Below, one piece after another: positions 50,897 through 53,549 of a stretch of 53,549 bases of DNA. This DNA comes from Candidatus Woesearchaeota archaeon (GTDB taxonomy: Archaea; Nanobdellota; Nanobdellia; Pacearchaeales; GW2011-AR1). The notes under the pieces were generated by a model. The model saw only the letters and a program-made list of their open reading frames with translations, did no database searches and was not told where the DNA came from. The first letter of the stretch is position 1. Each line of letters opens with the position of its first letter. The position numbers and the translations under genes are program-made. Location: contig CAYOFN010000002.1 in assembly GCA_964403535.1 (NCBI GenBank), positions 1 to 53,549 on the forward strand, read 5' to 3'.

Positions 50897-53549
50897 TTAT
50901 ACCTTCTCACTCTTTTTCACTTTTTTATTGCTTGTTTTCTTTTCACTTTTTGCAGAAGCAAGACTTCCAGTTACTTTAACTAATAATCCTGGCAAACCAG
51001 TTCCAACAGGAACAGGCTGATTCAGTATGATATTCTCAATAACTGAAGCAAGATGATCTTTATTATCTTTTAAAGTAGCATTAACAAATTGTTTTATTGG
51101 TGTTTCAAAACTCGCTCTTGCAAGTATAGATGATTTCTGTGCGATTATTCCCATTCTTGTAACCCCTCTAATATCTCCACTTGAGGTCATTGCATCAGCA
51201 ACCATCTTTAAATGTCTCTCGTCAATATCAAGTCCTTGTGAGTCTATCACTTTCTTGATTTCCAGGATTATCAGTGTTCTTGCAGCTTCAACTCCAAAAA
51301 CTTCTGCAACTTCATGCAAGTCATTACTCTTTGTCTTGTTTTTGTCAACACCTTTAATCTCAAGAATCTCCTTTAAATTAGAACCAGCAGTGATAATCAC
51401 ATAATTACTCTCTCTTTTTACAACAAGTATTTGTTCAATGCCTTTTATTCCTGAGATAATAGTCTCTTTTATTTTTTCTTTTAATTTGTAAATCTCTTTA
51501 AAGTCTAGTGACTCTGTGTCAAATACAAGTGAATTTGCTTTCTCTCTGTTTTTATACCCTTTATCTTTTAATTTTTTTGATATTGTGCTTACGGTTGTAT
51601 GAACCTCCCTAATAGAGCCTAGATTTATTACAGCCTCTATTTTTTTATCTCCAAAATTAACTTTAATTTCTTCAACAACATCCTTTAATTTTGATTCCTG
51701 TATTTTTTGAGCAATTATTCTTGCTTCTTTTTCATTATTATATTCTTTTTCAAGATAAATTTCCATGCTTGGAGTTGAAGGTTTTTTTCTTGCATCAAAA
51801 ATTTCAATTAATCTTGGAAGTCCAAGTGTAATCTGCATCTCCTGAACTCCTGCAAAATGGAAAACATTTAGTGCCATTTGAGTACTTGGTTCACCAAAAC
51901 TCTGTGCAGTTAACATTCCAATTGCTTCTCCAGGACAGATTTGTTTTTCTTTATGCAAATTAATAACATCAATTCCATCATCTCCATATGCAAACTGGAC
52001 TATTCTTCCAGAAGCATCTCTTACTGTATGGTCATACTCTACTCTTAAGTCCTGCAGAGCATTTGCAAGCCTTCTATAAAGGTAACCAGATTTAGGAGTT
52101 CTTAAAGCAGTATCCATCAGTGCATCTCTTCCAGTTATTGCACCAAAGAAAAATTCAAAAGGTTCAAGCCCTTTGATAAATGAAGAGTAAATAAATCCTC
52201 TTGACTTTGGACTTAAATCTCCTTCTTTAAAAAAAGAAAGAGTTCTATTTTTATACCCCATACTGATTCTTTTTGCCCATAATGCCTGCTGTCCAACACA
52301 ACAAGCCATTTGAGTGATATTCAGCACATTTCCTCCAGCTCCAGAAGAAATCATAATACTGACTGGATTGTCTTTTGGAAATTCCTCTTTTACAATCTCC
52401 CCAACTTTTGTTCTTACTTCATTTAAAATTTGAAGAATTTTGATTTCTCTTGACTCTTCTTTTGTTTTTCCAGGTATAGGCTCTATTGAATTATTGTAAT
52501 ACGCCTCAATAACCTTGTTAGTTTTTTCTTCAGAATTCTTAATTATTTCCTCAGTTTTCTTTTTTACTCCCTCTTTAACATTTAAATCCTCAATAGAAAT
52601 AGTAAACCCTCTCTTTGAAAGATAATTCATTCCAAGAGCAAAAGCATTTCTTATTACCTCAATTGTTTTGTTTCTCCCACACATCTTATCAATATGTTTT
52701 ATTACTGCTCCATTCTCAACTCCAAAAACATTTTCATCTACATCTCCTTCTATAATCTTGCCTTTTTTAACAACAAAATTCTTGTCTGTTCTTGTTTTTC
52801 CAGTATAATCAATTTCTGGGAAAACCTGGGAGATAATCTCACTTCCTAAAATTGTTTTTTTATTAATCTCCCCCCCTATTCCAGATTGAAAGAGAAGTTG
52901 TGAAGCTTCACCCTTTTCAAATTCGCTGAGATTAAGAAGATAATCTCCAGTTATCGCATCAGCAATACATCCAATCAAATTAGAATTATTTTTAGGAGAC
53001 ATTAAATTCTGCTTTACATCCAAAAGAACTCTTGCCTCTGCTCTAGCTTCCTCTCCCTGAGGAGAGTGAACATTCATTTCATCTCCATCAAAATCTGCAT
53101 TATATGGAAATGCAGTAGCAGGATGAAGTCTAAATGTTTTATGTGGAAGAACTCTTACAAAATGCGCCATTAAACTTGCCTTATGCAAAGATGGATGTCT
53201 GTTAAACAATACAACATCTCCGTCTTTTAAATGCCTCTCAACAATATACCCGGGATGAATCTCATCAGTTATCTCTTGTTTTAATTCAGGAGTTATTCTT
53301 TTTCTTTTACCATCTGGCCTGATTATATAATTTGCTCCAGGATAACTATCTGAGTTTATTAATTTTCTCAATTTCTCAATGTTCTTTGTAGTTACAGACT
53401 CGTTTACAGTAAGAACCTCTGCAATTTCTTGAGGAACACCAATCTCATTTATATCCAAGTAAGGATCTGGAGAGATTACTGTTCTGCTGGAAAAGTTGAC
53501 TCTTTTTCCTGCAAGATTATGTCTTATTCTTCCTTCTTTTCCTTTTATT
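50897..53549 (-). CDS. rpoA: DNA-directed RNA polymerase largest subunit, unsplit A'-A'' fusion (N-terminus beyond the window end)
   Basis: The frame is open from 53549 ([39 protein letters not shown]). Catalytic [10 protein letters not shown]. Bridge-helix region [22 protein letters not shown]. It continues without a stop through [48 protein letters not shown]...[18 protein letters not shown], which are A''-type trigger-loop motifs, to the stop at 50897. Confidence 0.9.
   Translation of the reverse strand, partial: [883 protein letters not shown]

Follow-up and report, generated by a model that had tools for sequence, protein, structure and literature searches.

Whether the largest subunit of archaeal RNA polymerase (RNAP) is encoded by one gene, rpoA, or by two, rpoA' and rpoA'' (products A' and A'', or Rpo1N and Rpo1C), has figured, as a rare genomic change, in arguments on the archaeal root and on deep branching (Da Cunha et al., 2017; PMC5484517). 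The question is raised anew by the end of contig CAYOFN010000002.1 of Candidatus Woesearchaeota archaeon (assembly GCA_964403535.1), where both modules lie in a single reading frame within the stretch of 53,549 nucleotides that was analysed as a whole, hereafter the window. Is this frame a real gene, what has become of the boundary between the two modules, and has the gene always been in one piece or was it joined again? From the sequence data it can be proposed, with a probability of roughly 0.88, that the window holds the genuine and functional rpoA (Rpo1) of a lake-water archaeon of the Pacearchaeota type, within DPANN (Diapherotrites, Parvarchaeota, Aenigmatarchaeota, Nanoarchaeota, Nanohaloarchaeota), that its product would be a single polypeptide of 1167 amino acids, and that the gene would descend from a fusion by deletion in the ancestor of its clade.

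The reading frame occupies positions 50897-53548 of the minus strand and comprises 883 codons followed by a TAA stop codon (50899-50897), with no internal stop in the translation. It runs past the window end, the N-terminal 284 codons lying beyond it, and the part in the window corresponds to residues 285-1167 of P0001, a 1167-amino-acid protein in a public protein collection. The first-pass annotation had described one frame for A' and A'' over 50897-53549. The open frame and the presence of both modules in it are borne out by translation, Pfam domains and structure alignments, but the outer coordinate is one base out, since 53548 lies in frame; the feature, i.e., the C-terminal 883 codons of rpoA plus stop, is nevertheless entered at 50897..53549 (-). 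Matches in the Protein Data Bank (PDB) are to Rpo1N, Rpo1C and Rpb1. The five Pfam Rpb1 domains occur in order, domain 1 on the full-length P0001 and domains 2-5 in the window open reading frame (ORF), in which Rpb1_2, Rpb1_3 and Rpb1_4 precede RNA_pol_Rpb1_5; the latter matches as one unbroken stretch across the junction (protein 460-808, model 1-266 of 267).

The motifs quoted in the first-pass annotation for A', the bridge helix, the junction and A'' were all found where it had placed them. Reading along the minus strand, a 10-residue catalytic Mg-binding motif (53072..53101) is followed by a 22-residue bridge-helix region (52067..52132), which aligns to yeast Rpb1 from residue 820, and by the last conserved A' block (11 residues, 51968..52000), the alignment of which reaches residue 856 in Sulfolobus A' and about residue 880 in yeast Rpb1. 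A junction linker of 11 amino acids (51935..51967) then separates the A' from the A'' module. The latter starts with a 30-residue trigger-loop region (51845..51934; Rpb1 1057 onward, Rpo1C 48-56 onward) and continues with the jaw, the cleft and a Lys-rich C-terminal tail (50900..51844), including an 18-residue A'' motif (51770..51823), FGVEAAR (51278..51298), an 11-residue A'' motif (51185..51217) and LARASFE (51104..51124). Catalytic motif, bridge helix and trigger loop are all intact, and their residues are invariant in an alignment of 41 sequences.

With regard to the junction itself, P0001 aligns over residues 6-811 to residues 3-856 of the 880 of Saccharolobus (Sulfolobus) Rpo1N (E 1e-239) and over residues 813-1140 to residues 56-389 of the 395 of Rpo1C (E about 1e-79). 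The corresponding alignment limits in Thermococcus are residue 884 of 906 in A' and residue 52 in A'', and a junction query aligns to yeast Rpb1 in two blocks, 820-882 and then 1057-1136. Hence the window gene has no counterpart of the last ~22-24 amino acids of A' and the first ~50-55 of A'', namely A' 857-880 plus A'' 1-55 in Sulfolobus numbering, or Rpb1 883-1056, the foot, in terms of RNA polymerase II (Pol II). These alignments to Rpo1N/Rpo1C and yeast Rpb1 agree with the earlier suggestion that the A' C-terminal and A'' N-terminal extensions are missing. The 11-amino-acid linker stands in for about 73 amino acids (A' C-terminal tail and A'' N-terminal segment) of split relatives, and a MAFFT alignment maps the deletion after P0001 residue 815. 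The window sequence fits the consensus of Pacearchaeota-type linkers, D-V-S-x-L-H-K-x-K-x-I-S-P-G-E, in which residues of the A' tail (DVSK) and of the segment preceding the trigger loop (K-I-S-PGE) are both retained, a pattern expected of an in-frame deletion across a gene boundary. The His of the linker (H816 of P0001, codon 51953-51955) is invariant in the 41-sequence alignment and is present in 75 of the 76 clade members whose linker is of modal length; no obvious equivalent of it was seen in the split sister clade. A further clade-specific deletion, of ~18 amino acids relative to both Woesearchaeota-type sequences and those of TACK (Thaumarchaeota, Aigarchaeota, Crenarchaeota, Korarchaeota), follows P0001 residue 119, outside the window; by position it falls in the N-terminal clamp region, between Cys-containing motifs.

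The survey of related genomes for which the first-pass annotation had called included one genome per GTDB species, giving 80 loci, and each locus was scored for whether the blocks at the end of A' and at the start of A'' share an ORF and for the sequence between them. All 43 loci of the Pacearchaeota type (60-72% identity) are fused, with 11-14 amino acids between the blocks. All 26 loci of the Woesearchaeota type (52-56% identity) are split, with an A' tail of ~20 amino acids, reading DVSKSEKGxINVKRII... before the stop, and an A'' N-terminus of ~50 amino acids ending in ...EYxxAK(I/V)xPGE. Four loci from Nitrososphaeria and Bathyarchaeota (L044, L062, L067, L070; 40-42% identity) are fused but have 83-84 amino acids between the blocks. 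In the MAFFT alignment, the columns deleted in the Pacearchaeota-type clade are fully occupied in Woesearchaeota-type as well as TACK sequences, which argues that the segment is old and was lost in the Pacearchaeota type. The median stop-to-stop length is 1167 amino acids for Pacearchaeota-type rpoA versus 1264 for Woesearchaeota-type A' plus A'', a difference of ~100 amino acids. A protein search added about 120 clusters that are 68-75% identical; almost all of them have 1156-1206 amino acids and all five Rpb1 domains, and those that are named are labelled Pacearchaeota, Nanoarchaeota or Nanoarchaeia. In this large and well-sampled clade, the compact fused rpoA is thus the rule.

Could the single frame nonetheless result from an assembly or sequencing error, in which two separate genes were run together through a frameshift, the loss of a stop codon or the collapse of a region? 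The contig is metagenomic and its coverage is modest (a word depth of about 5-7 in Logan contigs), and one relative does show an error of a comparable kind: at locus L034 (4256-4359), an apparent rpoB-rpoA fusion, read through as an ORF of 2088 codons, is caused by an N/X run in the record and was not counted. However, Logan contigs from four lake-water metagenome runs each span 51935-51967 without any indel, and P0001 is encoded, as the full 1167-amino-acid gene, on two further contigs from other samples of the European Nucleotide Archive (L081, L082), which match the window without gaps over 4.5-6.8 kb at 99.97-99.98% identity. The junction, for which the first-pass annotation had asked for read support, is thus the same, with neither stop nor indel, in the contigs of four runs and in two independent assemblies. 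Since, in addition, the same compact junction recurs in each of the 43 related species genomes and in about 120 protein clusters (1156-1206 amino acids), and since the linker is under sequence constraint, an artefact is effectively refuted. Away from the A'/A'' junction, small low-depth contigs of two runs join position 51584 to position 51718, skipping 133 nucleotides and adding 5 extra letters; this skip, with its flanks of 22 nucleotides, probably reflects a related strain or a chimeric unitig.

For a genuine gene, the history of the fusion has to be considered, which the first-pass annotation had left to a phylogeny. A neighbour-joining (NJ) tree was computed from Kimura distances over 1129 well-occupied columns of 76 sequences, with 200 bootstraps and the root assumed on TACK. 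The fused Pacearchaeota-type clade, the split Woesearchaeota-type clade and the group uniting the two each received 100% bootstrap support; in this distance tree, the window gene groups with named Pacearchaeota sequences and its nearest outgroup is split. One might suppose that rpoA was never split in the window lineage, as in Thaumarchaeota, Korarchaeota and Bathyarchaeota, given that their A-type genes are likewise single ORFs (PMC5484517, PMC4084955) and that the rooting of DPANN is uncertain. Yet the A-type genes of Nitrososphaeria and Bathyarchaeota keep a segment of 83-84 amino acids versus 11 in the window gene, to which TACK A-type genes are just 40-42% identical, and the window gene is joined in the tree by split Woesearchaeota-type genes (100% bootstrap) and not by TACK. 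Its linker, moreover, begins like the A' tail of the Woesearchaeota type (DVSK) and not like that of TACK (DPSK/DPAK), and basal members of its clade still have a split rpoB, as do the Woesearchaeota-type loci. An ancestral unsplit gene is therefore disfavoured and appears unlikely. Less probable still, indeed very improbable, is the horizontal acquisition of an already fused gene from a lineage with a compact rpoA, e.g., one labelled Altiarchaeota or Aenigmatarchaeota. Compact fused genes do exist in other DPANN-related metagenome-assembled genomes (MAGs) (L060, L061, L076, P0121, P0122, P0127, P0128, P0189), but they are only 42-46% identical to the window gene, branch elsewhere, each beside split relatives, and have linkers that differ from its own in sequence and in length (7, 15-22 and 19 amino acids); the window gene, for its part, sits in a native rpoH-rpoB-rpoA-nusA-S12-S7 cluster.

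Both the NJ tree and the alignment favour a secondary fusion. That the single rpoA gene would have arisen by secondary fusion through deletion is much the best reading, because the nearest relatives are split, because the lost segment is common to split and unsplit outgroups, and because basal members of the clade keep a split rpoB. Several points weigh against it. The polarity of the change depends on a distance tree of fast-evolving DPANN sequences for which a TACK root was assumed. The Pacearchaeota- and Woesearchaeota-type clades are reciprocally monophyletic sisters, and parsimony applied to these two alone leaves it undecided which state is derived. None of the Pacearchaeota-type loci carries a fused gene that retains the foot-like segment, so that one deletion and a fusion followed by a deletion are both compatible with the data. 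The AlphaFold2 monomer of 1167 amino acids, computed from the 41-sequence alignment, is too poor a model for the junction to be judged from it (mean pLDDT, the predicted local distance difference test, 55.5; pTM, the predicted template modelling score, 0.34; values below 50 at the junction). Finally, that the fusion would have made a docking interface dispensable is an inference.

As to the origin of the compact gene by secondary fusion, it can most likely be envisaged that the ancestor of the clade had adjacent split rpoA' and rpoA'' genes, from which the fused gene was derived. An in-frame deletion would have removed ~17 codons plus the stop codon at the end of A' as well as the start and ~45 codons at the beginning of A'', leaving a linker of 11-14 amino acids composed of the A' tail remnant (D-V-S-K), the nearly invariant His and the K-I-S-P-G-E preceding the trigger loop. 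The deleted segment corresponds in archaea to the foot of Pol II, which lies peripherally on the surface of the enzyme. The foot shows little conservation beyond Pol II, where correct assembly with Rpb6 and Rpb4/7 depends on it (PMC5389574). It is thus a plausible element to lose. The bridge-helix module and the trigger-loop/jaw module would now be covalently tied and, because of this, the two halves would be made 1:1 and would need no docking interface. The foot-like segment may thereby have become dispensable in a lineage under genome reduction.

A fused rpoA in Pacearchaeota is already known, a secondary fusion in this group having been stated in 2017 (Da Cunha et al., 2017; PMC5484517, text and S29 Fig). 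The genes concerned have the same single ORF for A' and A'' and belong to the same clade, to which the window gene adds a further member. Three MAGs named as Pacearchaeota (CG10_big_fil_rev_8_21_14_0_10_35_13, CG06_land_8_20_14_3_00_35_12 and ex4484_71) fall in the same group, supported at 100%, and have junctions of 11-13 amino acids. To the one sentence devoted to the fusion in the main text of that paper, the present analysis adds the extent of the deletion, the linker with its conserved His and the state of rpoB. Compared with the split Rpo1N/Rpo1C of Saccharolobus (2PMZ/4AYB), Thermococcus (4QIW) and Pyrococcus (8CRO), the window gene is collinear over both modules, whereas the former are two polypeptides that keep the A' tail and the A'' N-terminus. 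The unsplit A-type rpoA of Thaumarchaeota, Bathyarchaeota and Korarchaeota is likewise a single gene, but it encodes about 1250-1285 amino acids, keeps the inter-module segment of 83-84 amino acids and is distant (40-42% identity). Rpb1 shares the single chain and the order of domains 1-5; unlike Rpb1, the window gene has no foot (883-1056), C-terminal domain (CTD) or CTD linker. The window gene provides a clean and well-supported example, at the residue level, of a fusion in which the whole foot equivalent is lost and a constrained linker of 11 amino acids is left.

The second largest subunit offers a parallel. On L081, which is 99.98% identical to the window where the two overlap and extends beyond it, the order is rpoH (68 amino acids), rpoB (1100), rpoA (1167), nusA, S12, a 121-amino-acid ORF and S7, with rpoB being one gene that has all seven Rpb2 domains (L081:3253-6555, outside the window). 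In Woesearchaeota-type loci rpoB is split into B'' (~495 amino acids) and B' (~600 amino acids), whereas crown Pacearchaeota-type loci, a group with 100% support, have a single ORF of 1085-1107 amino acids. Basal Pacearchaeota-type loci (L015, L024, L030) combine a fused rpoA, with a linker of 12 amino acids, and rpoB''/rpoB' that are still split. At the rpoB junction, the two parts are plainly joined end to start with a few extra residues and no large deletion. The order of events in the clade would be a fusion of rpoA first and, in the crown only, a later fusion of rpoB; the split rpoB of basal members and the single one of the crown point to an ongoing re-fusion of split large-subunit genes within this clade.

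Compact fusions of rpoA were also seen elsewhere in the survey, although MAG labels are unreliable. L076, labelled Aenigmatarchaeota, is fused with a linker of 19 amino acids; its sisters (100%) are L048 and L049, both of them split. Among its relatives in a protein search with L076, P0121 (83% identity), P0122 (73%) and P0127 (50%) share this compact arrangement, P0125 and P0126 (53% to L076) are fused but keep about 58 amino acids, possibly an intermediate state, and many split A' proteins of 817-847 amino acids are found at 55-57% identity. A clade labelled Aenigmatarchaeota/Nanohalarchaeota holds fusions with the 19-amino-acid linker together with the ~58-amino-acid forms. The linkers of L061, P0128 and P0189, labelled Altiarchaeota, are of 15-22 amino acids, and that of L060 (LFW-156_1), which pairs with a split locus labelled Micrarchaeota (98.5% bootstrap), is of 7. 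The differences in linker length and sequence between groups suggest recurrent independent fusion accompanied by loss of the foot-like segment. We regard it as an even bet that the split and fused states of large RNAP subunits in DPANN-type archaea are far more reversible than assumed, with recurrent re-fusions of rpoA and a later fusion of rpoB in the Pacearchaeota type. If so, the foot-like segment would serve mainly as an A'/A'' docking interface that is expendable once the chain is continuous. Fusion events would then not be rare, so that the rpoA split would be a homoplastic character instead of a rare genomic change and would weaken as a phylogenetic marker. No report of rpoA fusions in other DPANN lineages was found in the literature searched, coverage of which was incomplete. 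If confirmed by proper phylogenetics, these other compact fusions and the later re-fusion of rpoB would matter more than the window gene itself. They also suggest how an archaeal Rpo1 of one chain might be built minimally, following a design found in nature.

Other rearrangements were met among the surveyed loci. In two closely related genomes of the Woesearchaeota type (L077:97-3954 and L079:244-6327), the order is rpoB' - rpoA'' - rpoA', i.e., the halves of rpoA are swapped. The A'' genes at L065:8558-11161 and L073:2895-5435 have an insertion of ~450-500 amino acids inside the trigger-loop motif. The insert follows GEP(G/S)TQMS and, in L065, is succeeded by TLNVFHF; in L065 it starts with Cys and ends with His-Asn before Thr, a signature that appears intein-like.

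Regarding the neighbourhood of the window gene, all on the minus strand, a spacer of 33 nucleotides (50864..50896) separates rpoA from a gene for an archaeal NusA-like KH-domain protein of 140 amino acids (50441..50863; TIGR01952, E 1.4e-18), which is followed by the genes for ribosomal proteins S12 (uS12; 49895..50347) and S7 (uS7; 48932..49525), elongation factor 2 (aEF2; 45955..48126) and elongation factor 1-alpha (EF1-alpha; 43926..45227). Together with the upstream part on L081, these genes follow the canonical order of the RNAP-ribosomal cluster (PMC10833476), with L30e missing. The first-pass annotation had already remarked on the absence of rpl30e between rpoA and nusA, and this holds: apart from the 33-nucleotide spacer nothing lies there, and no L30e-like match was obtained in the window, the best hit of a tblastn search of its 53.5 kb with three L30e proteins from related loci being at noise level (E 0.052 over 18 amino acids). 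The ORFs at 49528-49893, 48563-48847, 48184-48483 and 45298-45744, considered as displaced copies of rpl30e, gave no significant family in Pfam or NCBIfam. An ORF of the L7Ae/L30e family directly follows rpoA in almost every split locus, in the majority of TACK loci and in 14 of the 43 Pacearchaeota-type loci (among them L003, L015, L020, L021, L023, L024, L026, L027, L029, L030, L031, L033 and L041). It is missing there in the other ~29, including the nearest relatives of the window except L003, and its presence in some members only points to loss or relocation within the clade.

The ORF at 49528-49893 (-), of 121 amino acids and located between S12 and S7, has no family match apart from a weak one to DUF3040 (E 0.006); it is also found on L081 and L082, L008 has no ORF at this place and L023 has one of 68 amino acids. 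Between EF1-alpha and dnaG, an AT-rich stretch of 650 nucleotides (43276-43925) has no ORF of at least 40 amino acids and no Rfam match; over the whole window, Rfam at the gathering threshold returned two transfer RNAs only. The S10 gene, which usually comes after EF1-alpha in the cluster order (PMC10833476), is not at that place in the window. At the opposite end of the window, an open frame of at least 3931 codons (1-11793, minus strand) runs off the window start and matches Laminin_G_3 (E 6e-48, three stretches) and FG-GAP-like repeats. Giant surface or adhesion proteins are often seen in DPANN genomes, and the product of this frame is probably one of them.

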